64,000 bases of DNA, taken from positions 5,431-69,430 of the forward strand of contig JAZKZZ010000015.1 of assembly GCA_045612885.1 (NCBI GenBank). Direction: 5' to 3'. The notes under the pieces are model-generated. The model did no database searches and was not told where the DNA came from. It saw only the letters and a program-made list of their open reading frames with translations. Each line of letters opens with the position of its first letter. The stretch's first letter is position 1. The translations under genes were made by a program, and so were the position numbers. The DNA comes from Bacilli bacterium (lineage in GTDB: Bacteria > Bacillota_I > Bacilli_A > RFN20 > DUOF01). Shown in pieces: positions 9,828 through 63,615 of this stretch.

Positions 9828-10718
9828 CTACTCTCCTACAAACATTTTTATCTTTTTATGTAAACATTTAACTTCAATATTTTGAAAATCAGATTTATCC
9901 CCATCAATATTCCACAAAACTTTATCTTTTACCTTAACACTTATATTCTTTCCACTATATACTTTGACTGAAGAAAACTTTCTTAAATTTTCAACACCTG
10001 CTACAAACACAGACCAAATATTAACTGGTGTATTAAAGTAATCTTTTTTAATAATAACTAAATCTATAATTCCATCATCTAACTTAGCGTTTTTATTAAA
10101 TTTAGGAAATCCTCCAACTGATTTACTATTTAAAAGTAAAGCTAGAATGCAATCTTCTTCTTTGTATTTTATACTATCTACTTCTATATCTAATTTGTAT
10201 GTTTTAACATGAAAACTCTCTTTTATCGCTGATAATACATATGCGGCTTTACCAATCTTTCTTTTCAGTTTTTGATCTGCATTATATACTCCTGCAGTAT
10301 ATGTACCAATGCCCGCTACATATGACATATAAGAATCATTGATTTTACACAAATCAATTTCTTTTATTTTACCTTCTAAAATCACATCTAAAGCCTTATC
10401 TATATTATGAGACAATTTATGATTATTAGCTAAATCACAACAACTTCCTGAAGGAATATATCCAAGAACCGGCGTGTTTTCTATATCACCTATTCCTTTT
10501 AGAACTTCACTAAATGTTCCATCCCCTCCACAAACAATTATTGCATCATACTTACTAGCAGCATCTTTTCCTATTTCTATAGCCTCTTTAGCATAGTTAG
10601 TAGCTCTAATATCTACTACATCGTATTTAGACTTTAATCTCTCCATTAAAAAGGGTAATTTTCTTATAAATCTCCTACTTCCTCCACTTACAGGATTATA
10701 AATAACTAAACATTTCAT
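9828..10718 (-). CDS. Lipid kinase, diacylglycerol-kinase catalytic-domain family (YegS/BmrU-like)
   Basis: AIIVCGGDGTFSEV motif. N-terminal NAD-kinase-like fold. Confidence 0.8.
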   Translation of the reverse strand: MKCLVIYNPVSGGSRRFIRKLPFLMERLKSKYDVVDIRATNYAKEAIEIGKDAASKYDAIIVCGGDGTFSEVLKGIGDIENTPVLGYIPSGSCCDLANNHKLSHNIDKALDVILEGKIKEIDLCKINDSYMSYVAGIGTYTAGVYNADQKLKRKIGKAAYVLSAIKESFHVKTYKLDIEVDSIKYKEEDCILALLLNSKSVGGFPKFNKNAKLDDGIIDLVIIKKDYFNTPVNIWSVFVAGVENLRKFSSVKVYSGKNISVKVKDKVLWNIDGDKSDFQNIEVKCLHKKIKMFVGE

Positions 10719-10720
10719 AG

Positions 10721-11491
10721 CTAAATATCCTTACTCTCTAATCCTTCAATAATAAAATTATCATAGTACTTTTTCAATTCTTTAATCTTAGTCTTATCAT
10801 TTAAAGTCCAACCAGTAATCTTATATCCCTTATTTTTATAACTCTCCAACAATTTGTAATTAATATTATCAACATCATATGATATAAAATCTGGTTTTAC
10901 TAAGAATTTAAACATATGCTTATTAACTACCAATTTATGAATAAACCCTTTTTTATGATTACTTCCAATTCTCCCTAGAAAAACATCCTTATCTAATTTT
11001 TTATATGCTCTAAGAAGGACAGGATTAAATGATACAATTACATATTTACCTTTATAATCCTTTAATAACTCATATACTTGTTTTACTAATATTTTATTTA
11101 ATTTTGAATTAACACTCTTTAACTCAATCATTAGTTCAACTTTTCCATCTACCATATTTAATACATCTTTGAATAAAGGAACACTAACATCCTCTCTTAA
11201 TTTATTAATTCTTTTATAAGAAATATCACTTACTAATCTATCTCTATTAAATAATCTTTTCAAATTATCATCATGAAAACAAATAACTTTATAATCGCCT
11301 GTTAATTGTACATCAAATTCAAATGGTGATTTATCATCAATTGACAATTTAAATGCTTCCAATGTATTTTCATATATCTTTACATTATCAAATTTTCCCC
11401 TATGATAAATAGGTTTATTGAATAACCATTTGCATTCTTTATCGAATTTAATTTTTCTTTCTTCTTTACTCTTCAATTTTTTTACCTCCAA
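10721..11491 (-). CDS. Glycerophosphodiester phosphodiesterase (GDPD family)
   Basis: HRG...ENTLEAF and EFDVQLTGD motifs. 26-nt overlap with the upstream patatin gene. Confidence 0.75.
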   Translation of the reverse strand: MEVKKLKSKEERKIKFDKECKWLFNKPIYHRGKFDNVKIYENTLEAFKLSIDDKSPFEFDVQLTGDYKVICFHDDNLKRLFNRDRLVSDISYKRINKLREDVSVPLFKDVLNMVDGKVELMIELKSVNSKLNKILVKQVYELLKDYKGKYVIVSFNPVLLRAYKKLDKDVFLGRIGSNHKKGFIHKLVVNKHMFKFLVKPDFISYDVDNINYKLLESYKNKGYKITGWTLNDKTKIKELKKYYDNFIIEGLESKDI

Positions 11492-14689: not shown

Positions 14690-17061
14690 ATCTTCTTAAC
14701 GTAATCTTTAATACTTCTATCACTTGAAAAATAATAATTTCTAGCAATACTTAATAAAGTTTTACGATACCATTCATCACCATTTCTATAAGTCATATCC
14801 ATTAATGCATCTGCTCTTATATAATCAGCAAAATCTGCTAAACACATATAAATATCTCTATGAGGAGTTTCTCCTAGTAAATATTGACTAATATCATGGA
14901 AAGATTCACCATTAAATCCATTATCTAGATAAGTAATAACTCTTCTTATTCTCTCATCACTATTGTAGTAATCCATTGGATGATATCCTTTTTCATCAAT
15001 CATAGCTTTTTCTTCTTTTGTTAAACCAAATGAGAATGAGTTATCAATTCCACACTTTTCCATAATTTCAATATTTGCACCATCAATAGTATCAATCATT
15101 AAGGCTCCATTAAAGATAGCTTTCATATTACCAGTACCACTAGCTTCTTTACCCACAAGTGATATTTGTTCACTTACATCCGTAGCAGGTGTCAATAACT
15201 CAGATACAGAAACTGAGAAGTTCTCCACGAATACAACTTTAATTTTCTTGTTAGCAATTGGATCATTCTCAATATGTTTAGCAAGTTGAGTCACCAATCT
15301 AATAATTCTCTTTGCCATATAATAACTACTAGCAGCTTTACCTGCAAAAATAAATGTTTGAGGCGTCATATCCCAATCAGGATTATTTCTTAATTCACTA
15401 TATAAATAAATGATTCTTAAAACATTTAATAATTGCCTTTTATATTCATGAATTCTTTTTGCCTGAACATCGATTCTAGCGTTAGGATCTATCTCAATAC
15501 CTTGAGTTTCTTTTAAATATTTAGCGAATCTTTTCTTATTTTCTAATTTAACTTTCTTTAGTTCTTCTAAAGTTTCACTTTCATGAGCAAATTTTTCTAA
15601 TTTTTTAAGCAAACTAGCATCAGTTAAATATTCTTTTCCTACTCTTTTACTAATAAATTTATCAAGTAATGGATTAGCTTCTGCAACCCATTTTCTATGT
15701 GAAACACCATTAGTAACATTTACAAATTTTTCAGGATAGATACTATAATAATTCTTTAATAAATCGTTCTTTAAAATATCTGTATGTATCTCACTAACTC
15801 CATTTACACTGTGACTTGCATAGACAGCTAAATTCGTCATATAAACTTTCCCATTAGAAAGAATTGCCATATTTTCCACTTTTGCACCATCAAACTTATA
15901 TTCATATTTAAGTTGATCTCTAAGTCGTCTATCTAACTCTCTTAAAATTAGAGCTATACGTGGCATATATTTTTCTACCAACCAATATGGTTGTACCTCT
16001 AATGACTCACTTAAAATAGTGTGATTAGTATAACTTATAGTTTCTCCTACCATTTTAAACGCTTCATCCCAAGATAAATAATATTCATCTAATAAAATTC
16101 TCATTAATTCTACTACCATAAACACAGGATGAGTATCATTTAAATGAACTGCCATATGTTTAGGAAGTGTTGAAATTCTATGTCCTCTTGCGATATGTTC
16201 TTTAATAATATTTTGAATAGCAGCACTTGCTAAAAAATACTCTTGTTTTAATCTTAAAGCCTTACCATACTCATTATCATCAGCAGGATACAAATAATCA
16301 TTAATTGCATTTATATCCCTAGCAATTTGCTCTTCTCTTAGTTTTTCTTCATCAGTTAAAACGCCAGTTTTATTAGAAAGATAATTAGCTTTCCATAAAC
16401 GTAAATATGCATTTCCTTCTAATTTATATCCAGTCATCACCAAATCACAAGGAATAGCCTCTACGCAAATAGGATTATTCAATTTGTAATGGTATGTGCC
16501 AAAATAATCCACATTTTCTTCTAATTCGCCACCAAAATACACTTTAACAGCTTTATCTTTCTTCTCATTTAGCCATACATGACCTTTATCCAACCATTGA
16601 TCTGCTTCTTCTTTTTGTTCTCCATCAACAATTTTTTGTTTAAATAAGCCATATCTATACAAAAGAGAATGTCCCATTGCACGGTAATTTAAAGTAGCCA
16701 ACGATTCTAGAAAACAGGCAGCAAGTCTACCTAAACCACCATTACCTAAACCCGCATCATTTTCTTGTTTAATAACATCTTTAAGATTCTTTTTGTGAGA
16801 TTTAAGTATTTTATCTACTTTACTATATTCTCCCATATTCCATAAGTTATTTTCTAAACAATTACCAATTAAAAATTCTATAGAAATATAGTTAATAGCT
16901 TTCTTTCCTCTATTGTTTGCAATTGTTTCATCTGATTTTTCCACAACTTCCTTACTAACAAGATAAGCCAAAACATCATGAATTTCTTCATTAGTAGCAG
17001 TATCTAAATTCTTATTAAAATCTTTCTTTAATTGCTTATTTAAGATTTCTTCATTAAGCAT
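14677..17061 (-). CDS. glgP: Glycogen/maltodextrin phosphorylase
   Basis: Pyridoxal-phosphate site GKEASGTGNMKAIFNGAL. 794 aa. 13-nt overlap with the amylase gene. Confidence 0.93.
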   Translation of the reverse strand: MLNEEILNKQLKKDFNKNLDTATNEEIHDVLAYLVSKEVVEKSDETIANNRGKKAINYISIEFLIGNCLENNLWNMGEYSKVDKILKSHKKNLKDVIKQENDAGLGNGGLGRLAACFLESLATLNYRAMGHSLLYRYGLFKQKIVDGEQKEEADQWLDKGHVWLNEKKDKAVKVYFGGELEENVDYFGTYHYKLNNPICVEAIPCDLVMTGYKLEGNAYLRLWKANYLSNKTGVLTDEEKLREEQIARDINAINDYLYPADDNEYGKALRLKQEYFLASAAIQNIIKEHIARGHRISTLPKHMAVHLNDTHPVFMVVELMRILLDEYYLSWDEAFKMVGETISYTNHTILSESLEVQPYWLVEKYMPRIALILRELDRRLRDQLKYEYKFDGAKVENMAILSNGKVYMTNLAVYASHSVNGVSEIHTDILKNDLLKNYYSIYPEKFVNVTNGVSHRKWVAEANPLLDKFISKRVGKEYLTDASLLKKLEKFAHESETLEELKKVKLENKKRFAKYLKETQGIEIDPNARIDVQAKRIHEYKRQLLNVLRIIYLYSELRNNPDWDMTPQTFIFAGKAASSYYMAKRIIRLVTQLAKHIENDPIANKKIKVVFVENFSVSVSELLTPATDVSEQISLVGKEASGTGNMKAIFNGALMIDTIDGANIEIMEKCGIDNSFSFGLTKEEKAMIDEKGYHPMDYYNSDERIRRVITYLDNGFNGESFHDISQYLLGETPHRDIYMCLADFADYIRADALMDMTYRNGDEWYRKTLLSIARNYYFSSDRSIKDYVKKIWKL

Positions 17062-17071
17062 CTTATTCCCC

Positions 17072-18580
17072 CTACATTTGTTTATATAAATTCACATAAT
17101 TATTCATTGAGAAACTCCAACTGAAATCTTTTTTCATTACAGTATGAATCTTCTCGGTCCATGACTTTTTATCATGATAATCATTAATTGCTCTTCTTAA
17201 AGAATATTCAAAATCCTCAGAACTACAATTATGGAAAGTATAACCATTTCCACCTTCAATACATCCGAAATCCTTGATAGTATCTTTTAATCCACCAACT
17301 TCTCTAACAAGTGGTACTGCACCATATCTACTTGCAATCATTTGTGATAAACCACATGGTTCACTAATTGAAGGCATCATAAAAATATCACTACCTGCAT
17401 AAATCTTTTTACCAATATCTACTACAAATCCTAAATATACTCCTACTCTAGTAGGATACTTACGATTTAAATAATTTAAAAAATCTTCATATTGTTTGTC
17501 ACCAGTTCCAATTGCTACAAGTTGAGCATCAGTGCTATTTAGTATTCCTTCAATTGTATCTTTAACAAAATCTAGTCCTTTGTTTTGAACTAATCTAGTT
17601 ACTAAAGATAATACTGGAACATTTGGATTAACTTCCACATTAAAGAACTTTTGTAATTCTTCTTTATTTTTCGCTTTATTTTCTAAACTATTACTATCAT
17701 AATTAACCCAAATGGCTTTATCTACACTTGGATTATAGAAAGTATAATCTAACCCATTTACTATACCTGATAATTTATAAGAAACTTGTCGAGCTATGTC
17801 ATCTAATCCATTACCTCCTTCAGGAGTTTGAATTTCTTTTGAATAACTATCACTAACTGTAGTAACTCTATCAGCACATAACATACTAGCCTTCATAAAG
17901 TTTACATCACCATGATGTAATAACAATCCTGAATCTTTTTGATCGAAACCTAATACATCACCTAATATCTCTTTACCATATCTACCTTGATATAAAATAT
18001 TATGAATTGTTATAATAGTTTTCATTTCATTATATTTAGGATTATTCCAATTATATGTCTTCAAATACACTGGAACCAATGCACTTTGCCAATCATTACA
18101 ATGAATAATTTCAGGATAAAAATCTAAAATCGGTAGCACTTCTAAAACACTCTTAGAAAAAAACGCGAATCTTTCAGCATCATCACCATATCCATAATAA
18201 TTGTCTCTTTTGAAATATTTTTCATTATCTAAGAAATAATAAACCACATTATCTTTTTTATAAGTAAATATTCCACAATACTCTTTTCTCCAAGATAAAT
18301 TAACATATGTATTAGCAATATATGTTAATTTTTCTCTTTCAATCTTCATGTTTTTGTAAAGTGGTAAAATAACGCGAATATCACTACCAGGATACTCTTC
18401 CTTTAACTTATTAGGTAAACTACCACATACATCTGCTAAACCACCTGTTGCACAAAAAGGTTGTACCTCACTTGTTACATACAAAATTGATTTTTTGAAA
18501 TCATCACCTTTTTTATTACTAGTTTTGCTAGGTGTTTTCTTTGCTTTTAATACTTCTTTTGCCATAAAAATTTCCCCCAT
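17072..18580 (-). CDS. glgA: Glycogen synthase (GT5)
   Basis: SEVQPFCATGGLADV (K-T-G-G-L motif). GT-B C-terminal domain. An internal Met at codon 6, preceded by a gggga SD, may be the real start. Confidence 0.9.
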   Translation of the reverse strand: MGEIFMAKEVLKAKKTPSKTSNKKGDDFKKSILYVTSEVQPFCATGGLADVCGSLPNKLKEEYPGSDIRVILPLYKNMKIEREKLTYIANTYVNLSWRKEYCGIFTYKKDNVVYYFLDNEKYFKRDNYYGYGDDAERFAFFSKSVLEVLPILDFYPEIIHCNDWQSALVPVYLKTYNWNNPKYNEMKTIITIHNILYQGRYGKEILGDVLGFDQKDSGLLLHHGDVNFMKASMLCADRVTTVSDSYSKEIQTPEGGNGLDDIARQVSYKLSGIVNGLDYTFYNPSVDKAIWVNYDSNSLENKAKNKEELQKFFNVEVNPNVPVLSLVTRLVQNKGLDFVKDTIEGILNSTDAQLVAIGTGDKQYEDFLNYLNRKYPTRVGVYLGFVVDIGKKIYAGSDIFMMPSISEPCGLSQMIASRYGAVPLVREVGGLKDTIKDFGCIEGGNGYTFHNCSSEDFEYSLRRAINDYHDKKSWTEKIHTVMKKDFSWSFSMNNYVNLYKQM

Positions 18581-55418: not shown

Positions 55419-56213
55419 TTATAAACTTTCTAAATATTCAACTTTATTCTTAGCATTTTCCATAAATCGCATTTTCTCTTCTTTAGTTAAATAGTTATCT
55501 AAATAAACATCTTTATTTTTAAATTCTAGGGCTATATTAAAATTCCTAATAGATTTTTTTAAATCATATTTTGAACTTTCTTTATCCATATAAATTAAGC
55601 CTAAACAAATATAAGCTAAATAATTTTCCTCATCCCATTTTGTAGCATAAATCAAATCTTTTTCTGATTTACTTATCCTATCTTTTACACTCATTCCTAT
55701 TATCTCACCATTTACAATATATTGATAAGACCTCAGTGCTAAAGCGTATGCTTTTAAAGTTCTATTTTTTGTTTGTTTTTCTAAGTAATCAACCCAATCA
55801 TTTCCATCTTCAATATTAACTGATTTATGGCTTCCAGTATGACTATACGCAATATTTGTTTGCCCATAGAGTGCTTGAATGAGTATAATCATAGTTTCGG
55901 GATTATTATATGGTCTACTAGATAATTCATATAAAATCTCTCTAGCAAACTCTATGTAATCTCTTTTTTTATCTTTAATTATTTCATTATCAAAATCAAA
56001 GTTTTTAGCTATTAAAGTAGCAACTTTTTCGCCATATTTTTCTCTTGCTAGAGAATCTTGTTCTTTTTCGGCAGTGGAAAGCAATTCGTAATTTTCATTA
56101 AATTGTTTTAAATATTCAGGTGCTTTTTTTAATAGATTTTTTTCTATAAATAAATCATCATTAATTTTAGTAACTTTTTTCAATTTGTTTTTTGTATCTA
56201 TCACAAAAATCAC
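55419..56213 (-). CDS. Hypothetical protein, 264 aa
   Basis: Clean ORF divergent from the transglutaminase-like gene. No motifs recognised. Confidence 0.55.
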   Translation of the reverse strand: MIFVIDTKNKLKKVTKINDDLFIEKNLLKKAPEYLKQFNENYELLSTAEKEQDSLAREKYGEKVATLIAKNFDFDNEIIKDKKRDYIEFAREILYELSSRPYNNPETMIILIQALYGQTNIAYSHTGSHKSVNIEDGNDWVDYLEKQTKNRTLKAYALALRSYQYIVNGEIIGMSVKDRISKSEKDLIYATKWDEENYLAYICLGLIYMDKESSKYDLKKSIRNFNIALEFKNKDVYLDNYLTKEEKMRFMENAKNKVEYLESL

Positions 56214-56340
56214 CTCATTAAAATTAGAATATCATAAATTATGCTCCATTTAATCAATATATACGATTTATTTTAAAAATTTAGAAAATACTAAGGACAA
56301 TTATTTATTATTTTATATAATAAACTAAGAGGTGTTTTAG

Positions 56341-58092
56341 ATGGAAAAAGTAGTTAATTACACATATTATGCAATATTGCAAGATGATAATAACTTAATT
56401 AAAAAAGATAAAATTTTTGTTCAGCATAATAATGCAAGATTACTATTTCCAATAAGTTTTGATAAAGAAACATTGGAAAAAAACTACAGCATATATAAAG
56501 AGATGCTCGAAGAAGGATTTATACATAGTCAAGAAATTAATAAATTATCATTTAACCTGTTAGAAATACATAAAAGTTTAACCTGTGATAATTGGAAAAT
56601 TTTAATTGATTTTGCAAAAGAACATAATATCAATTTTAGAGTCAATATCAAAGAAGAATATACTCCCGAGGAAATGTCTAATTATATCCAATCTTTTATA
56701 AAAAAAGAAAATGGCATAGAAACATTTGTTTTTAAAAGAGAACAATTAGAAAACCCAGAAAATCCATTTCTAGAAGGTATAGAAAATGATGAAAATATTT
56801 TTAAAGATTCAAATGTAAATACTTGTTTTTATATTAACAATGAATTTAGAGATAATTTCAAGTCGCAAATTCATAAATCACTAGAAAGATTTAATGGCCA
56901 GATGACATTAAATTTACAAAGTGGTAAAAGTTTCGATAATGACGCTAAGGAAGAAGTGATTTGGAGGATTAATTACTTAAAAGAAAATTACCCTGATAAA
57001 AAAATTGATATCACTTTTTCGACTGCTAATAGATATTATCTTAAAGAGGAATTCATTAAAATTTTAGAAATCGAAGAATACATCAAAAATAACTATAATC
57101 CTGAATATGAGTTGCGATTTACAGGAAATAATAAATTTTACAATAAAGAACAAATAGTATCCGCTAATAGTAAAATTAATAGAACAGTAGATAAATTAAA
57201 ACTTTCTAATTTATCACCATACGAAAAAGTAATGTTTATAACAAAATTATTAAATGAAAAAAAGTATTACAAATGTAAAAGTAATGATTCTCTTTCAAGA
57301 GATTTATATAGCATATTAAACACTAGAAATATTATCTGTACAGGATATGCTTATTTGATGGATGTAATCTTAAATGAATTAAATGATGAAAATATCAAAT
57401 CTAAAAGTGAAACTATTATTCAAACTGATTATTTTAACCAAGAAGAATATCATGAAGTCAATTGTGTTTATATAAAAGATGAAAAATATGGCATTGAAGG
57501 ATATTATAACTTAGATATTAATTTTTATGGGGAAAATTATAATCATTTTATGACTCCAGTAACAGATATCGATTCATTGTATGCGTCTCGATATAAATCT
57601 GTACTAAAAGCTACAGAAACAACAAGGGGAAATCTTGGTGATCAAACCATGCCAATTTATCCTAATAATGAAAGCTACTATACTATTTTTACTAAATTAA
57701 AAAATAGTAATAATTGGCAAGATAATGTATTAAATAGTACAAAACAATTTTTAAGTACCCCTATGGGAAATAAAATAGCAGACAATATGGGAATTACCAT
57801 CAAAAAAGATTCAGACGCATTAAAAATCATTAATGAGATAATAGCTCAATCTCCCCCTATACCTATTGAATGCACACAAAAAGCATTAGAAGTAGTAAGT
57901 AAGTCATATTTAGGATTAAACAGTGCTCAAGCAGCAGAATATTCAAGAAATAAAATCGTAGAAAATATTTTTGATAGTTTGTTTTTACAAGAAAGAAAAA
58001 ATTGTAAAAATTGTTTTGCTAAACTTAGTAAAGAAATTGAAGAAGAAAATCTAAATAAAAATAAGGTGTGTCACGATTCTAGACATATTTGA
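56341..58092 (+). CDS. Cytoplasmic transglutaminase-like (papain-fold Cys-His-Asp) protein, 583 aa
   Basis: NIICTGYAYLMDVIL (CxGxA nucleophile context), then HEVNCVYI, then YYNLD, spaced like a transglutaminase-core triad. No signal peptide. Confidence 0.55.
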   Translation: MEKVVNYTYYAILQDDNNLIKKDKIFVQHNNARLLFPISFDKETLEKNYSIYKEMLEEGFIHSQEINKLSFNLLEIHKSLTCDNWKILIDFAKEHNINFRVNIKEEYTPEEMSNYIQSFIKKENGIETFVFKREQLENPENPFLEGIENDENIFKDSNVNTCFYINNEFRDNFKSQIHKSLERFNGQMTLNLQSGKSFDNDAKEEVIWRINYLKENYPDKKIDITFSTANRYYLKEEFIKILEIEEYIKNNYNPEYELRFTGNNKFYNKEQIVSANSKINRTVDKLKLSNLSPYEKVMFITKLLNEKKYYKCKSNDSLSRDLYSILNTRNIICTGYAYLMDVILNELNDENIKSKSETIIQTDYFNQEEYHEVNCVYIKDEKYGIEGYYNLDINFYGENYNHFMTPVTDIDSLYASRYKSVLKATETTRGNLGDQTMPIYPNNESYYTIFTKLKNSNNWQDNVLNSTKQFLSTPMGNKIADNMGITIKKDSDALKIINEIIAQSPPIPIECTQKALEVVSKSYLGLNSAQAAEYSRNKIVENIFDSLFLQERKNCKNCFAKLSKEIEEENLNKNKVCHDSRHI

Positions 58093-58158
58093 ATATAATA
58101 ACTATTTTATAAACTTTTTTAAGTTTAATTGATATAATAATAAAAAGGAGTGATGTGA

Positions 58159-58623
58159 GTGGAATCTATTTTAGAAATAATGCCCTGGATTTGGGGAGGC
58201 ATATTTGTAGTGACTCTTGTTATAGAATTTGAAAGTTCTGATTTGGATGCTTTATGGTTTTCAATCGGTGCATTAGTATCGCTTATTGTGGATTTATTCT
58301 TCCCTGAATTAGGAATAGTATGGCAACTTCTAATATTCATTCTAACAACTGTTTTGTTACTATTCACTTTAGGACGTTGGGCTAAAAAGAAATTTAGGAC
58401 AGAACATATTTCTACTAACGCGGATGCTTTAGTAGGTAAAGAAATTCTAATTTTAGAGGATTGTAGTGAATTTGATAAAGGTAGTGGGTCTGTAAATGAT
58501 GTTGTATGGACAACTATTTGTCAATCAGGATATTCTTTAAAAAAAGGTGATCATGCAATTATAGTTGCAATTGAAGGTAATAAACTTATAGTAAAAAACA
58601 AGGAGGAAGAAAAAAATGTCTAA
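58159..58623 (+). CDS. NfeD-like membrane protein (partner of SPFH proteins)
   Basis: N-terminal TM helices plus a C-terminal OB-fold-like segment. 8-nt overlap with the downstream SPFH gene. Confidence 0.75.
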   Translation: MESILEIMPWIWGGIFVVTLVIEFESSDLDALWFSIGALVSLIVDLFFPELGIVWQLLIFILTTVLLLFTLGRWAKKKFRTEHISTNADALVGKEILILEDCSEFDKGSGSVNDVVWTTICQSGYSLKKGDHAIIVAIEGNKLIVKNKEEEKNV

Positions 58624-59536
58624 TGTTGTTATTTTTATTTTAATAGCACTAGCTATATTTGTACTTATAATTATTTCAAAATCAATTGTTGTCGTTAAAC
58701 AATCAACAGCTTATGTTATAGAAAGATTAGGAGCTTATAATAGAACTTTAGGAGTAGGATTACATGTTATTGTGCCATTCTTTGATAGAATAGCAAATAA
58801 AGTAACATTAAAAGAAACAGTAGAGGATTTTCCTCCTCAACCAGTTATCACAAAAGATAATGTTACAATGCAAATTGACACTGTTGTATATTTTCAAATA
58901 ACAGATCCAAAATTATTTGCATATGGAGTTCATAATCCTATTAATGCATTAGCGAATCTGACTGCTACTACATTAAGAAACATCATTGGTGACTTGGAGT
59001 TAGATGAAACTCTAACAAGTAGAGATACTATTAATGGTAAAATGCGTTTAATCCTTGATGAAGCTACTGATCCTTGGGGTATTAAAGTTAATAGAGTGGA
59101 AGTTAAAAATATTCTTCCTCCTAGGGATATTCAAGATGCTATGGAAAAACAAATGAGAGCAGAAAGAGAAAGAAGAGAAGCTATTCTTAAAGCTGAAGGA
59201 GAAAAGAAAGCTGCAATCCTAACAGCAGAGGGTGAAAAAGAATCAACAATCCTTAGAGCAGAAGCTAAAAAACAAGCTGAAATTGCAGAAGCAGAAGGTA
59301 AAGCAGAAGCGCAAAAACTACTTGCAGATGCTCAAGCATACTCAATAGATGTAATTAATAAAGCTAATCCTAATATGGCTTATGTTACTTTAAAAGGTTA
59401 TGAGTCTTTGGAAAAAGTTGCTAATGGACAATCTACAAAGCTTATTATCCCATCTAATTTACAAGAAAGTGCAAGTTTTATCTCTTCATTAGCAGAAGTT
59501 GCTACAACAAAAAAAGCTAAAGAAGAAAAAAAATAA
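58616..59536 (+). CDS. SPFH/band-7 (stomatin/prohibitin-like) protein
   Basis: N-terminal TM anchor. SPFH core (YFQITDP...ALANLTATTLRNIIG). Coiled-coil EA-rich C-terminal tail. Confidence 0.9.
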   Translation: MSNVVIFILIALAIFVLIIISKSIVVVKQSTAYVIERLGAYNRTLGVGLHVIVPFFDRIANKVTLKETVEDFPPQPVITKDNVTMQIDTVVYFQITDPKLFAYGVHNPINALANLTATTLRNIIGDLELDETLTSRDTINGKMRLILDEATDPWGIKVNRVEVKNILPPRDIQDAMEKQMRAERERREAILKAEGEKKAAILTAEGEKESTILRAEAKKQAEIAEAEGKAEAQKLLADAQAYSIDVINKANPNMAYVTLKGYESLEKVANGQSTKLIIPSNLQESASFISSLAEVATTKKAKEEKK

Positions 59537-59547
59537 GTAATAAAAAA

Positions 59548-59575
59548 CTTAGATAATGTTATCTAAGTTTTTTTA
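59548..59575. terminator. Bidirectional terminator between the SPFH gene (+) and the 429-aa gene (-)
   Basis: cttagataa-tg-ttatctaag palindrome with an A-run on the left and T8 on the right. Confidence 0.7.
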
Positions 59576-60862
59576 TTTTCTAGAATTAATTGGATCATAT
59601 TTTATCATATAATCATGTAAGATATTCATTGTTAAAATATTAATATCTTTTAATGTTAATGTTCCTATATATTCTATGTTTTTTTCTATTTCTTTAATTG
59701 ATTTATCTTTAGTAGTTTTATCTATTATTCCATCATAAAAATTGAATCCGTCTTCATAATTGTAATAGAACCTACCATGCATTATTGAGTTACGCAATTT
59801 ATTAAAATCTATTTTGCAGTCTTTTAAATATTCTTTTACACTTTCTGGATCCATATATGTGAAAATACTAAATAAAATATTATTGGCAAGACAGGCTTCA
59901 AATCTTGATGGATACCCAAGATAATCTTGAATAGCTATTATATCTACAGGTTCTTCTTTTTCTATTTTACTATCGAAAACCTTATGCATAAATTCATTTC
60001 TAGTGATGTATTTATCTTTTAATATCGATAAGTAATTTATTGTCATACAACAATCTTTGATGGCGTTATTAGCATTGCATTTAAATGGGAATTTTAGTAT
60101 AAAGAACGAGGGATCGTAAGGGTGTATTCCCATATTTATAGTAGCTTCATCTAATCCATCACTATTTTTAATTATACAATTATATAAGGCTTTCTTTTGA
60201 AGTTTATCCATTGGAATATCAACTTTAGCATTTGGATCAAAAGCATGTATATATTTATGGACATTAAAAGGATTAAGTTTCTTATTCAATACAGCATTAC
60301 TTAACCTACTTGCATACATACTAATTCCTAAACTAGGAGGATTAATAGCATTAGTTAGGTATATATTAGCTAGGCTAACCAATTCATCAATATGTATTTT
60401 TAACTTGATTTCTTGAGATTTTAATTTTCTATGAATAATTACATTATCTTTATCATCCCACATCCAATTAGGAACTATATTTCCATCATCATTATGTGCA
60501 AAAGATTGTCTTATAATATCAAATAATTTTTTAGAATTAATTGTCTTTAAATTGCCATTTACATCAATATTAAATTTTAATTTAGAAAAATCCTTTTTAC
60601 TCTTCTTTAATGATTCATCAAAATTATCATTTACTACCTCATACAAATAGACAAAATATTGCGTTATTAAAGACCTCATAGTCAATCTTTTCATATGAGT
60701 TAATAAGCTATAGTGTTGCTCTTTATAGTATTTATTTAAACTATCTGGCAAATGATTCATTAACTTAGTATTAGGCACATATTTCCATTCATATAAAGTA
60801 TGATAAAAAAACAATTGAACTAATAAAGAATATCTATTTCCTTTCATAACTTCATTACTCAT
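59573..60862 (-). CDS. Hypothetical 429-aa protein with a C-terminal HEPN-like R-N-x3-H-G motif (candidate Abi-like RNase)
   Basis: KLRNSIMHGRFYY near the C-terminus fits the Rx4-6H HEPN signature. The rest is unrecognised. Confidence 0.5.
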   Translation of the reverse strand: MSNEVMKGNRYSLLVQLFFYHTLYEWKYVPNTKLMNHLPDSLNKYYKEQHYSLLTHMKRLTMRSLITQYFVYLYEVVNDNFDESLKKSKKDFSKLKFNIDVNGNLKTINSKKLFDIIRQSFAHNDDGNIVPNWMWDDKDNVIIHRKLKSQEIKLKIHIDELVSLANIYLTNAINPPSLGISMYASRLSNAVLNKKLNPFNVHKYIHAFDPNAKVDIPMDKLQKKALYNCIIKNSDGLDEATINMGIHPYDPSFFILKFPFKCNANNAIKDCCMTINYLSILKDKYITRNEFMHKVFDSKIEKEEPVDIIAIQDYLGYPSRFEACLANNILFSIFTYMDPESVKEYLKDCKIDFNKLRNSIMHGRFYYNYEDGFNFYDGIIDKTTKDKSIKEIEKNIEYIGTLTLKDINILTMNILHDYMIKYDPINSRK

Positions 60863-61026
60863 ATTACCACTCCAACAATATTTTATTAGAGTTAGTTATG
60901 AGTGTCAATTATAATATTTTACTCACAATAATAGTATCTATGTAGACAACAACATTTTGTATAGATGCAGCAACTAAACAAGCTATTAATCTGTTTGAAA
61001 GAAAAGGTGATTATAGTGTTTCGTAC

Positions 61027-61389
61027 TTGAGATATATCATACAAATTGCTCAAGAAAACATAGAGAAAGAGTTCAACTATCCAGTCAGTGAATACTCGGA
61101 CTGGTATATAGTTAAGTGTAAGATGACTGATGAAGAAGCTAGACAGTCAGAGATGGAACACAGAGTATTTCAAATAACAGAGAATAGGAAGATAATCTCA
61201 CTATTCACTGAAGAATTGAAAAAGAGAGAAGAGTTAACTATGGATGAAATCTATAATCATCTGAAAGATAAGTATTACTTGTGTGTTAGTAAAGATAAGA
61301 GTGAGAGTGACTCATATATGAAAGGTGTATATGTAGGCGTGGCACTAGCATATCAAGACATATGTCAGTTGCTTAAGATGGAGTTATGA
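61027..61389 (+). CDS. Small ORF (120 aa, TTG start) inside a GC-richer segment. Probably a 5'-truncated gene remnant.
   Basis: The frame stays open back to 60946 with no ATG and no good SD. Codon usage is unlike the host. Confidence 0.35.
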   Translation: MRYIIQIAQENIEKEFNYPVSEYSDWYIVKCKMTDEEARQSEMEHRVFQITENRKIISLFTEELKKREELTMDEIYNHLKDKYYLCVSKDKSESDSYMKGVYVGVALAYQDICQLLKMEL

Positions 61390-61577
61390 CATACAAGGAA
61401 CAACTAAATGAGTTCAAGAGTCAAGATAGACTAAATCATGTAGAGATAGCAATAGCACTGGAAGTAGAATCATACTTTGAGAATGCAAGTGATGATCAAT
61501 TTGAATCTATATGCAGTTACATCAAAAGAATCTACCATACTAAGAGCAGAAGCCAAAAAGTTAGCCCAAATAGCTGA
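61386..61577 (+). CDS. Small ORF (63 aa), ATGA-coupled to the previous one, running into the SPFH-fragment frame junction
   Basis: Overlapping start/stop atgA. C-terminus out of frame with the adjacent SPFH fragment. Confidence 0.3.
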   Translation: MTYKEQLNEFKSQDRLNHVEIAIALEVESYFENASDDQFESICSYIKRIYHTKSRSQKVSPNS

Positions 61578-61809
61578 AGCAGAAGGGCAAGCACAGGCTG
61601 AAAAAGCCATATACGAGGCACAAGCTTATGGTATTAAAATAGTCAACGAAGCCAACCCAGGAAATGCTTACTTAACGATAAAAGCCTATGAGGCACTGAA
61701 AAATCTAGCAGAGGGCCAATCGACTAAAATCATAGTTCCTTCTAATTTACAAGAACTGGCAGGCCTAATCACTTCTATAAAAGAAATCGCTGACGACAAA
61801 AATAAATAA
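61537..61809 (+). pseudogene. 3' fragment (last ~90 codons) of a second, divergent SPFH/band-7 gene. No start codon.
   Basis: It encodes SKESTILRAEAKK...AQAYGIKIVNEANPGNAYLTIKAYEALKNLAEGQSTKIIVPSNLQE. This is colinear with the C-terminus of the intact SPFH at 59230-59536 (KESTILRAEAKK...GQSTKLIIPSNLQE) and shows clear nucleotide divergence from it. Confidence 0.7.
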
Positions 61810-61821
61810 CACGCATGTAAA

Positions 61822-61858
61822 AACCTCCAAAGTAGAAAAATCTATCTGGAGGTTTTCT
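61822..61858 (+). terminator. Rho-independent terminator after the SPFH fragment
   Basis: cctcca-(17-nt loop)-tggagg followed by ttttctt. Confidence 0.55.
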
Positions 61859-61964
61859 TGTGCGCTCCCACTTTAATTCGCATTTGAATTCTACAATGCG
61901 GTAAACAAGATCATAAGCGTACACATCTACTATACTTATAAATCTTTTGTTTTTATAGTAAAAG

Positions 61965-62507
61965 TTAGAATCTAAATTGTTTTATTTCTGCGTTTTTAAA
62001 ACTTCTTAAATGATTATCATTATTAAAATCAACATCAATCTGTAAAAGCAAGTCTTCTAAAAACGTAGCATTGCAATTATGCGTTATGATTAATATACTA
62101 TCAAACACGCAATTATTTTTTATGTCTATAAGAAAATCTTTTGTTCTATCATACGCACTTTGATAACTTTCCATACCACAAGATTCTGACCTGGAATATT
62201 TAAGTGTTTTTTCCTTTTCAGTCAAATCATATTTGCTTCTACCTGTAAAAATCCCTTGATCTATTTCAATAAGTCTTTTGTCTTTTATAACTTTTACATT
62301 ATGAAATTTATTCATTATGTTTGCAGTTTGCACAGTTCTCATAAGTGGTGAGCAATAGATTATATCGAAATTAGTATTCTTATATTTTTCAGCGACCTCT
62401 TCTGTCAACGCTATTCCTTTTTTGCTTAGCCTATTATTAGTATGTCCTTGTGTAATACCTTTTTCATTCCAAATTGTTGTCCCATGTCTCATTATATACA
62501 ATTTCAT
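61965..62507 (-). CDS. Histidine phosphatase (phosphoglycerate-mutase-like superfamily)
   Basis: N-terminal LYIMRHGTT (RHG catalytic motif) and a later H in ITHN. 180 aa. Confidence 0.8.
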   Translation of the reverse strand: MKLYIMRHGTTIWNEKGITQGHTNNRLSKKGIALTEEVAEKYKNTNFDIIYCSPLMRTVQTANIMNKFHNVKVIKDKRLIEIDQGIFTGRSKYDLTEKEKTLKYSRSESCGMESYQSAYDRTKDFLIDIKNNCVFDSILIITHNCNATFLEDLLLQIDVDFNNDNHLRSFKNAEIKQFRF

Positions 62508-62726
62508 TTACACATCTCCTAAACACATCATTAATTCTTCTTATATACTTATTGTAAATCAGTTGATTGCATTTTTCAAGCAACTAAAAAAAGCAATTTG
62601 TTTTGTTTTTTACAAATTAATTGCATATTATGATGACAATATTGTAATTATCTGTAATTCCCTAGATAAATCCTTAAAAAGAAAAAACAAACCCTTTAAT
62701 TTAAAAGAGTTCGCATATGACTTTCA

Positions 62727-62800
62727 TGGTGCTCTTTACCAGAATTGAACTGATACTTAATCCTTACCATGGATTTGGTCTACCATTAACCTAAAAGAGC
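62727..62800 (-). tRNA. tRNA-Thr (anticodon GGU), 74 nt, CCA encoded. Not represented in the ORF track.
   Basis: Hand-folded cloverleaf: acceptor GCTCTTT/AAAGAGC; D-loop AATGGTA; anticodon stem AATCC/GGATT; loop ATGGTAA (U33, GGU, A37); T-arm ATCAG-TTCAATT-CTGGT; discriminator A; CCA. Confidence 0.8.
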
Positions 62801-62810
62801 AAGTGTAATT

Positions 62811-62839
62811 ATTATCTATTAAAAAACTATAGTTTTCAA
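62811..62839 (-). promoter_or_regulatory. Sigma-A promoter TTGAAA-17-GATAAT, about 10 nt upstream of the tRNA-Thr 5' end
   Basis: Minus strand: ttgaaa actatagttttttaata gataat, ending 10 nt before the mature 5' G. Confidence 0.6.
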
Positions 62840-62878
62840 TAGTTTTAGTTACTTTTATACACCTACAAATTGCATATA

Positions 62879-62910
62879 TAAAAAAGCCTTTATTGATAAG
62901 GCTTTTTTAA
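62879..62910 (-). terminator. Terminator overlapping the stop of the biotin ligase gene
   Basis: aagcctt-attgat-aaggctt hairpin with flanking A and T runs. Confidence 0.6.
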
Positions 62911-63615
62911 TACTATTTCTCCACTAGATATTTTTCCCAATTTATCATCTTTTTTTATTAATAAGCAATTGTCTTCATCTATTCCTATAATTTCAATTAA
63001 TATTTCTTTATCATTTTGTTTTAAATATGCTGTTTTATTCTTTAAATAATTATTTTCTTTAACTACTTGTAAATATGAATTATCATCATTTTTAAGTTTT
63101 TTTAACATATTAATAATTTTTGAGTATAATACTTTTTTTATATTATTTAAATTTTTCTTATCTTTAGTTTCCAAGAAAATTGAAGTGGCAGGAATCTCAA
63201 ATTCGCTAGAATTAACATTTAATCCTATTCCAATAACTATAGCTTCAATATCATTTCCATTGGATATTCCCTCTAATAATATACCTGATATCTTTTTATC
63301 ATTTACATATACGTCATTAGGCCACTTAATAGATACATTTACTACATTTAATTCTAATAATAATTCATAAACACAAACAGCACTAGCTAAAGATAAAGAT
63401 GCATATCTGTTAATTATGCTTTTATCTTTAATAAGAACAGAAAAAAGGAGATCTTCTCCTTTTTTACTAATCCAAACACGATTATATCTTCCATGCCCTT
63501 TAAATTGGAAATCAGCACTAACAAAAGTTAAATTTTTTTCATTTGTATAATTATTCTTTAAATATATAGATGTAGAATCAATTTCACTAAAATGATACTC
63601 TTTCATCTCAATCAC
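62890..63615 (-). CDS. birA: Biotin--[acetyl-CoA-carboxylase] ligase, group I (no N-terminal HTH)
   Basis: GHGRYNRVW (GRGRxGRxW-type biotin-binding loop). BPL_LplA_LipB fold. 241 aa. Confidence 0.8.
   Translation of the reverse strand: MIEMKEYHFSEIDSTSIYLKNNYTNEKNLTFVSADFQFKGHGRYNRVWISKKGEDLLFSVLIKDKSIINRYASLSLASAVCVYELLLELNVVNVSIKWPNDVYVNDKKISGILLEGISNGNDIEAIVIGIGLNVNSSEFEIPATSIFLETKDKKNLNNIKKVLYSKIINMLKKLKNDDNSYLQVVKENNYLKNKTAYLKQNDKEILIEIIGIDEDNCLLIKKDDKLGKISSGEIVLKKPYQ

Follow-up and report, generated by a model that had tools for sequence, protein, structure and literature searches.

The second SPFH tail in the analysed DNA (the window, i.e. the whole stretch of 64 kb) was assigned, with a probability of about 0.8, as the non-functional 3′ remnant of a clade-B SPFH gene, located within a 1.8-kb patchwork of foreign DNA (60917–62726) that is a scar of horizontal transfer. 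A clade-B SPFH gene is the source of the fragment and its terminator, and an out-of-frame join via a 12-nt microhomology connects the fragment, at its 5′ end, to codon 50 of the 93-aa gene of an integrase element. The finding is an ordinary recombination scar of a well-known kind, in a tidy instance. Gene remnants of this sort are common in island hot spots and are of little importance alone. The value lies in a clean worked example: both parents of the illegitimate junction were identified to the base, and the topology shows the capture of chromosomal DNA beside an integrase element and its passage between two related but distinct lineages of gut Bacilli. In annotations, the 105-aa open reading frame (ORF) within the fragment should be flagged as a pseudogene fragment, not as "SPFH domain protein", and 60917–62726 should be treated as a decayed island. 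Coordinates of all features are compiled in Table 1.

Table 1. Features of the SPFH locus, the foreign patchwork and the adjoining tRNA gene (positions refer to the window; a point denotes no strand)
Feature	Position	Strand	Evidence or remark
nfeD, resident clade-A operon	58159–58623	+	Pfam NfeD, E 3e-9; syntenic in L022, L026, L027
Intact SPFH gene, QmcA-like, clade A	58616–59536	+	Pfam Band_7, E 2e-40, 139 bits
429-aa gene, native to the slot in the closest relative L026	59573–60862	-	58099–60916 aligns with L026 9484–12301, 83.7% nt identity
Filler at left breakpoint, 39 nt	60917–60955	.	both flanks aligned; no match to any locus compared
155-aa element gene remnant, 5′-truncated	60956–61389	+	tblastn, residues 13–155, 92%
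93-aa element gene, first 50 codons	61386–61535	+	tblastn, residues 1–50 of 93, 98% identity
Junction microhomology AAAAGAATCTAC, 12 nt	61524–61535	+	three-way alignment: window, L022/L026 element gene, L031/L022 SPFH-B
SPFH-B 3′ fragment, 94 codons and stop	61525–61809	+	homology to clade-B SPFH genes
Native clade-B SPFH terminator hairpin	61812–61864	+	fold -23.8 kcal/mol, z -6.5; stem sequence conserved in L033
14-nt direct repeat TTCGCATTTGAATT, left flank of His_Phos cassette	61877–61890	+	tentatively att-like
Histidine-phosphatase gene, island cargo	61965–62507	-	Pfam His_Phos_1, E 1e-34
tRNA-Thr 3′ flank, clade-B type	62549–62726	.	matches L031 (78–86%), L032 (78%), L022 (75%)
tRNA-Thr(GGT), syntenic anchor	62727–62800	-	ARAGORN; same tRNA in L022, L026, L027, L028

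The fragment was aligned colinearly with the last 94 codons of the intact SPFH gene, its counterpart being codons 208–306 of that gene (59237–59536). The MAFFT alignment (59236–59536 against 61525–61809) was gap-free internally except for the last few codons, and tblastn placed the 94-aa fragment on 59237–59500 with 62.5% amino acid identity (E 1.3e-32). In register, the nucleotide identity was 65.6% over 270 nt, with 93 mismatches (52 at codon position 3, 31 at position 1 and 10 at position 2), and identical stretches were no longer than 15 nt. The similarity is homology over the whole conserved C-terminal block and not a matter of EA-rich composition. The preliminary description, which had reported a second colinear copy of the tail and had asked whether low-complexity coiled-coil composition might account for it, was thereby confirmed on this point. 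It had placed the copy at 61537–61809; the stop end of this range held, while the start did not, as the homology begins 12 nt earlier (61524/61525, at codon K of KESTIL). Homology to the clade-B loci continues beyond the stop codon to approximately 61859, taking in the terminator hairpin. A simple terminator scan, limited to loops of 3–8 nt, missed this hairpin with its interrupted stem, and it was detected by folding.

The intact protein matched QmcA from E. coli (PDB 8z5g) over residues 8–300 (E 1e-64), and its gene overlaps with nfeD to form an operon. Relative to such SPFH proteins of the QmcA/YbbK type, partnered by NfeD, the homology covers residues 208–300, the C-terminal helical and tail region, starting at codon 208 of the parent gene; unlike them, the fragment lacks the N-terminal membrane anchor and the SPFH domain. 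In keeping with this, the Pfam search with the 110-aa ORF gave no PF01145 and only a sub-threshold match to Band_7_C (E 9e-4, 19.6 bits, cut-off 29.1 bits). Neither a start codon nor a ribosome-binding site of SPFH origin is present in the fragment; the DNA 5′ of it belongs to the element gene, in a different reading frame. No further remnant of nfeD or of an SPFH N-terminus was found anywhere within the 64-kb window.

For the assignment to clades, homologues were collected by a search with the full-length protein, and each was given three separate scores, one for the N part, one for the resident tail and one for the fragment. Tails of clade A (P0048–P0056) showed 88–98% identity to the resident tail and 61–71% to the fragment, whereas those of clade B (P0058–P0076) showed 82–96% identity to the fragment and 64–70% to the resident tail. 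On average, the fragment was 85% identical to clade B and 62% to clade A, and the C part of the intact gene 89% identical to clade A and 63% to clade B. The central SPFH core is near-invariant (96–97% identity within and between clades). The variable regions are the N-terminal 60 residues (74% within clades, 60% between) and the C part (82–86% within, 63% between), and both place the intact gene in clade A, its N-terminal 60 residues being 71% identical to clade A and 59% to clade B. A mosaic gene, i.e. a clade-B host gene that had received an element-borne clade-A tail, was first suggested by identities of 85% for the N part and 65% for the C part; it was rejected, as the core is ultra-conserved and the clade differences also appear in the N-terminal 60 residues, where the intact gene is clade A.

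A protein search with the fragment only returned nothing but short proteins, some of which were SPFH genes split into two ORFs (L017, L019), and scans of genomes and metagenomes with the fragment peptide gave, among the matches listed, a best identity of 57%, mostly to distant SPFH genes. The close clade-B relatives were found via the full-length protein search. Exact look-ups of the 105-aa protein (P0001) and of the intact SPFH protein returned no contig; the latter is 94% identical to P0048 at the amino acid level.

Both clades occupy one syntenic slot, comprising genes for NERD, PNP, RDD, MgtE, Ddl, a Mur ligase, a hydrolase, a 260–290-aa gene, nfeD and SPFH. Because of this common slot, clades A and B are orthologues from two related lineages and not paralogues. 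The 8.5 kb upstream of nfeD showed 81% identity to L026 (clade A), 74.5% to L027 (clade A) and 68% to L022 (clade B). Backbone and intact gene are both clade A, and therefore the host is a clade-A organism and the fragment is foreign. The named homologues at about 70% identity belong to Erysipelotrichaceae and other Bacilli, and we infer that the host is an uncultured relative of the Erysipelotrichaceae/Bacilli group. The relatives carry one SPFH copy each and no fragment in the locus sequence compared; this includes the closest relative, L026, which has SPFH-A followed by the 429-aa gene. The 429-aa and 583-aa ORFs had no match in Pfam, PHROGs, PADLOC or NCBIfam, and a PDB match of the 429-aa ORF to RecA concatemers was without a significant stretch and was taken as spurious.

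The closest full-length relatives of the fragment, which the preliminary description had proposed to search for, were thus clade-B genes. Amino acid identity reached 96% (P0069 and P0074), and nucleotide identity was 84.3% to L031, 80.5% to L033 and 79.2% to L022. Its reading of the copy as diverged in DNA and codon usage, and as xenologous and not a recent tandem duplication, was borne out by this assignment and by the GC content at third codon positions (GC3), which was 0.30 in the fragment against 0.09–0.10 in the tail of the intact gene. The window is AT-rich (~27% GC). Chromosomal SPFH genes had GC3 values of 0.06–0.24, and the adjoining element remnants 0.28–0.33. The value of the fragment was matched by no sampled clade-B gene, the highest being 0.24 (L033), and with a best nucleotide identity of 84% among the clade-B genes compared, the donor itself was not found.

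Left of the fragment, the 39-nt filler separates L026-like sequence from the element remnant. The stretch 60956–61536 was 93.8% identical in nucleotides to L022 16597–17175 and 74.6% identical to L026 12819–13404. The remnant of the 155-aa gene lacks about 12 codons and the start codon and is listed as a 120-aa ORF at 61027–61389. The ORF of the 93-aa gene (ORF63) enters the SPFH fragment out of frame and stops at 61577. In the relatives the element comprises genes for DprA (L022 only), the 155-aa and 93-aa proteins, DUF3846, small ORFs and VWA, and in L022 the gene run ends in a tyrosine integrase (phrog_1, E 9e-65). No other part of the element and no integrase homologue were found in the window. 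The integrase was the only protein of the element with a match in PHROGs; no phage packaging functions were identified, and the 155-aa protein was not found in IMG/VR. A phage or plasmid origin was dismissed after blastn of 60880–61960 against phage and plasmid collections gave no match.

The transition from element to SPFH gene was resolved by three-way alignment. The window tracks the element gene to ...AGTTACATCAAAAGAATCTAC(C) and then SPFH-B from AAAAGAATCTAC (in L031: GGAGAAAAAGAATCTACGATT...). The 12-nt word AAAAGAATCTAC occurs in both parents, i.e. in the 93-aa gene of the element (L022, L026) and in SPFH-B (L031), and the identity to each parent ends at opposite edges of the word. The junction is a signature of short-homology illegitimate recombination, with the overlap located exactly at the switch point. 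Action of the integrase at a secondary attP in the 93-aa gene was rejected, since this gene is intact inside the integrated element of L022 and L026. The junction pattern had no match in JGI metagenome or IMG/VR contigs.

The preliminary description had taken the copy as a possible mark of the place where an incoming element carrying nfeD and SPFH recombined with the resident locus. Of this, the involvement of a mobile element was retained. There was no sign of an element carrying nfeD and SPFH: the integrase element of the relatives carries no SPFH gene, and the fragment comes from the adjacent clade-B chromosome. Recombination with the resident SPFH locus was likewise not supported, as the junction lies in the 93-aa gene of the element, 2 kb away, and the resident gene is not mosaic.

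Downstream of the terminator, the 14-nt motif TTCGCATNNGANTT has just two matches in the window (61877–61890 and 62710–62723), which bracket the phosphatase cassette; the second lies inside the tRNA-Thr 3′ flank. The motif also flanks the KilA-N/RhuM island beside tRNA-Thr in L022. Between the repeats, the homology block 61903–62542 was 87.5% identical in nucleotides to L032, where the phosphatase follows a RhuM gene, and includes the final 11 nt of that gene. The RhuM gene of L032 is in turn 89.5% identical to the RhuM gene of the clade-B locus L022. Up to the tRNA, the right side of the foreign piece follows the clade-B loci L031, L032 and L022 colinearly, and from the tRNA on the sequence is L026-like. 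Clade-A L026 matched only from 62726 rightwards, its identity over the tRNA and right flank (85.6%) being the highest. The tRNA-Thr is the probable homologous crossover point. Where L026 has 206 nt from the 429-aa gene to the 3′ end of the tRNA, the window has 1.8 kb (60917–62726), consisting of the element remnant, the SPFH-B tail and the clade-B-type island on the tRNA side.

This region resembles tRNA-linked islands in that it abuts the tRNA-Thr 3′ end, contains 14-nt direct repeats, a His_Phos cargo and truncated genes, and occupies a slot of variable gene content (different among L022, L026, L027 and L031); in relatives, the cargo of the tRNA-Thr island is RhuM and KilA-N. It differs from such islands by having no integrase homologue of its own in the window, and in relatives the integrase element is situated on the 5′ side of the tRNA.

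Gene order was compared between the window and the relatives. L022 and L026 run from SPFH (+) through variable genes to tRNA-Thr (-) and then the element with the 155-aa and 93-aa genes (+), whereas the window has the truncated 155-aa and 93-aa genes (+) joined to the truncated SPFH-B (+), followed by the His_Phos island and tRNA-Thr (-), which is a circular permutation. In L022, SPFH-B (10001–10900, +) and the 93-aa gene (17025–17306, +) lie in direct orientation within a few kb, so that direct orientation and circular permutation, the pair expected of aberrant excision or duplication, were both found. The join links the 5′ part of the downstream gene with the 3′ part of the upstream one while both keep their orientation, and this requires an excised circle or a tandem duplication. 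The foreign piece in the window is exactly the SPFH-to-element interval, opened at the tRNA.

The route preferred on the basis of these comparisons is as follows. A clade-B donor would have been ordered SPFH-B, small island, tRNA-Thr and element. In this donor, illegitimate recombination at AAAAGAATCTAC between the 93-aa gene and SPFH-B would have produced the junction of the two truncated genes, the product being either a circle (by aberrant excision, as in lambda gal/bio) or a tandem duplication. DNA carrying the junction would then have entered a clade-A genome, with recombination at the conserved tRNA-Thr or close to it, and the duplicated tRNA, together with the start of the 155-aa gene, would have been lost by a later deletion. 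Alternatively, a junction of identical chemistry could have formed in one step by homology-facilitated illegitimate recombination (HFIR), with the tRNA-Thr as the anchor and the 12-nt microhomology as the illegitimate end; by this route, the element would have been located between the 429-aa gene and the tRNA of the recipient. An origin of element remnant and fragment from a single clade-B donor is mildly favoured, as the remnant is 94% identical to its counterpart in a clade-B genome. The order of events was inferred from one genome.

Specialised transducing genomes of lambda gal/bio arise by illegitimate excision via short-homology recombination. The present case is similar in that an internal site of the element is joined to a nearby chromosomal gene via a short (12-nt) homology, the circularly permuted product is part element and part adjacent host DNA and lacks the integrase end, and the captured host DNA ends in another genome. 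It is dissimilar in that no packaging functions were identified in the element, which is also absent from IMG/VR, and in that just a decayed 1.8-kb remnant is left; a tandem duplication could give the same junction. For HFIR, microhomologies of 3–10 bp were reported (PMC6382021). As in HFIR, the foreign piece has one end in a conserved anchor, here the tRNA-Thr with its flank, and an internal end formed by a microhomology join. In contrast, the overlap here is 12 nt, and the two pieces that it joins, element and SPFH-B, both look foreign, so that this is not a join of demonstrably foreign to resident DNA.

As to its present role, the fragment is most likely inert. Transcription is possible, and the terminator kept with it is predicted to be working; a promoter scan gave weak matches only, at background level. 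Compared with four clade-B sequences, 17 of the changes unique to the fragment branch were synonymous and 1 was non-synonymous (an L replaced by I within ALYEA), and the unique changes included 12 from AT to GC and 0 from GC to AT, in a host with 27% GC. The substitution pattern together with GC3 therefore indicates that the fragment spent its separate history under selection as coding sequence, in surroundings less rich in AT. As there has been no drift yet to the composition of the host, the truncation and the arrival should be recent, and the data argue for a recent arrival in particular.

Among the rival explanations, a functional fragment was considered improbable. According to this explanation, the fragment is expressed as a peptide of ~105 aa that joins or perturbs the QmcA-like cage, or it serves as a silent cassette for gene conversion. 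It would account for the reading frame that is open over 94 codons, the dN/dS of 0.03 versus clade-B genes and the retained terminator; internal ATGs give the 105-aa ORF P0001, which is called in the source annotation. The intact frame and the low dN/dS would also fit selection acting on the fragment itself. The low dN/dS does not argue for a present function, because recent truncation explains it equally well; synonymous changes prevail 17 to 1, with the directional ones all from AT to GC. No Shine–Dalgarno sequence was seen before the internal ATGs when the sequence was read by eye, and the frame does not continue that of the upstream ORF. Furthermore, P0001 forms a singleton cluster among 15 billion proteins, and the junction did not turn up in JGI metagenomes or IMG/VR. 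Gene conversion of the C-terminal tail, which the preliminary description had suggested for such partial copies, is unlikely, given 66% identity, no exact run above 15 nt, just one copy and no recombinase; a silent-cassette conversion system was rejected on the same grounds of copy number, identity and run length.

The main support for a functional fragment is a 91%-identical fragment in another contig (L016/P0002), whose start lies within 12–24 nt of this breakpoint and which forms an in-frame fusion with a leader of the Cation_ATPase_N type (P-type ATPase) that has a good ribosome-binding site. If real, it would be a hint of a hot spot or of selection. The contig is 665 nt long and may be an assembly chimera formed at a shared purine-rich word of ~20 nt. 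Seen as a long shot, the fragment could be alive, the hinge at the AEGEKE repeats of QmcA-like SPFH genes being a recurrent breakpoint and free C-terminal modules, such as the ~105-aa ORF here and the in-frame fusion in L016, being expressed to co-assemble with, or poison, the resident SPFH cage. If true, this would make it, for example, a mobile-element-borne modulator of a complex for membrane quality control or linked to defence.

Decay in place of a second resident nfeD-SPFH operon, i.e. an old paralogue, is very unlikely. A start-less tail with its own terminator is the expected residue of such in situ decay, but in relatives of both clades a single operon occupies this locus, with none downstream, and no other remnant of nfeD or of an SPFH N-terminus is present in the window. 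On its upstream side the fragment is joined cleanly, via the microhomology, to an element gene, the fragment itself shows no decay, and the sharing of one syntenic slot by A and B identifies them as orthologues.

An assembly artefact, in which the contig would be a chimera of clade-A and clade-B genomes from the same sample, was rated as equally unlikely. Organisms of both clades were found in similar metagenomes, and the source appears to be poorly sampled, its proteins being singleton clusters on one 82-kb NCBI contig. Against this, the junctions share only 12 nt or have a 39-nt filler, which is far under assembler k-mer sizes, and no junction word of at least 16 nt recurs in the window. A chimera formed at the tRNA-Thr, the one long shared word, would leave SPFH-A and the SPFH-B fragment on the same side.

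Integration of e14 or phage 21 into icd leaves a 163-bp icd′ 3′ pseudogene, created by e14 (PMC6379469), and an att-site copy of this type, where an element inserted in the SPFH 3′ part would have brought a replacement tail and left the original at its far end, has such a precedent, a superficially fitting geometry (intact gene, 2.3 kb of other genes, divergent start-less tail in the same orientation a few kb downstream, mobile-element-linked) and several database proteins with unrelated N-termini fused to SPFH tails near the AEGEKE repeat on its side, but is the least probable explanation: it predicts a displaced tail of the host clade and a foreign replacement, whereas the intact gene is clade A and the fragment clade B; L026 has SPFH-A and the 429-aa gene that lies between the copies, without a fragment in the locus sequence compared; no integrase or integrase-bearing element is present between the two SPFH copies; the upstream neighbour of the fragment is an internally truncated element gene and not an element end; the 93-aa gene is intact inside the element in L022/L026 and hence without attP; and the longest shared run of 15 nt is located away from the boundary.

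A template/variable pair of a DGR was also considered, prompted by a DGR-type reverse transcriptase on L018. No RVT domain was found by Pfam in the neighbouring ORFs (55419–63615), and the candidate was rejected, as the mismatches between the fragment and the intact tail span all four bases.

Several database proteins (P0002, P0025, P0031 and P0036) were found to carry SPFH C-terminal tails joined to unrelated N-termini, the fusion point lying in each case no more than about 30 residues from the AEGEKE repeats, the hinge region of QmcA-like SPFH proteins. Among these N-termini, one is a Cation_ATPase_N leader, another looks like an AddA/UvrD-type N-terminus and the others are unknown sequences. 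The tail on the metagenome contig L016 shares 91% amino acid identity with the start-less SPFH tail fragment of the window, and its SPFH homology begins just 12 nt upstream of the position corresponding to the start of that fragment. Such fusions near the AEGEKE repeats could reflect a recombination hot spot, ascertainment by the search, or assembly chimeras formed at a purine-rich word.

The 4.3-kb metagenome contig carrying P0031 also encodes, about 0.9 kb upstream of the fusion ORF, a reverse transcriptase whose IGxxxSQ motif is typical of diversity-generating retroelements. In some metagenome contigs (L017 and L019), the SPFH gene is present as two adjacent ORFs, a split caused by frameshifts or sequencing errors; the many short "proteins" recovered with the tail-only search are due in part to such splitting.

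Coordinates of the features described, by locus
Feature	Locus	Positions	Strand
583-aa ORF	window	56341-58092, within 56284-58098	+
429-aa ORF	window	59573-60862	-
14-nt direct repeat TTCGCATNNGANTT	window	61877-61890 and 62710-62723	
14-nt direct repeat TTCGCATNNGANTT	L022	13436-13449 and 15436-15449	
Integrase element	L022	15746-20306	
Integrase element	L026	12791-15992	
SPFH-tail fusion P0002	L016	1-665	
SPFH-tail fusion ORF P0031	L018		
Reverse transcriptase	L018	1065-2102	
Split SPFH gene	L017	1588-2499	
Split SPFH gene	L019	9489-10378	

The integrase element of the syntenic relatives L022 and L026 is about 5 kb long and comprises a DprA-like gene (L022), the 155-aa and 93-aa genes, DUF3846, small ORFs and VWA, with the tyrosine integrase at its far end. 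It is located on the 5' side of tRNA-Thr, an unusual position among tRNA-associated elements; clear flanking repeats were not found, and IMG/VR returned no match. Immediately beside the tRNA-Thr 3' end, the TTCGCATNNGANTT pair flanks a small cassette without an integrase, which holds His_Phos in the window and KilA-N plus RhuM in L022. The repeat resembles an att site belonging to a family of small islands at tRNA-Thr.

Upstream of the SPFH gene, the 583-aa ORF, for which no family match was found, is an insertion between a conserved 264-aa gene and nfeD; L026, L027 and L022 lack it, the 264-aa gene there adjoining nfeD. Pfam, PHROGs, PADLOC and NCBIfam gave no match for the 429-aa ORF, whose sequence includes three R-x4-H motifs (RQSFAH, RNEFMH and RNSIMH) resembling those of HEPN nucleases. 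It is kept at the same position in L026, the slot being taken by an HD-domain gene in other relatives, and it may represent a defence-type gene in a variable slot.
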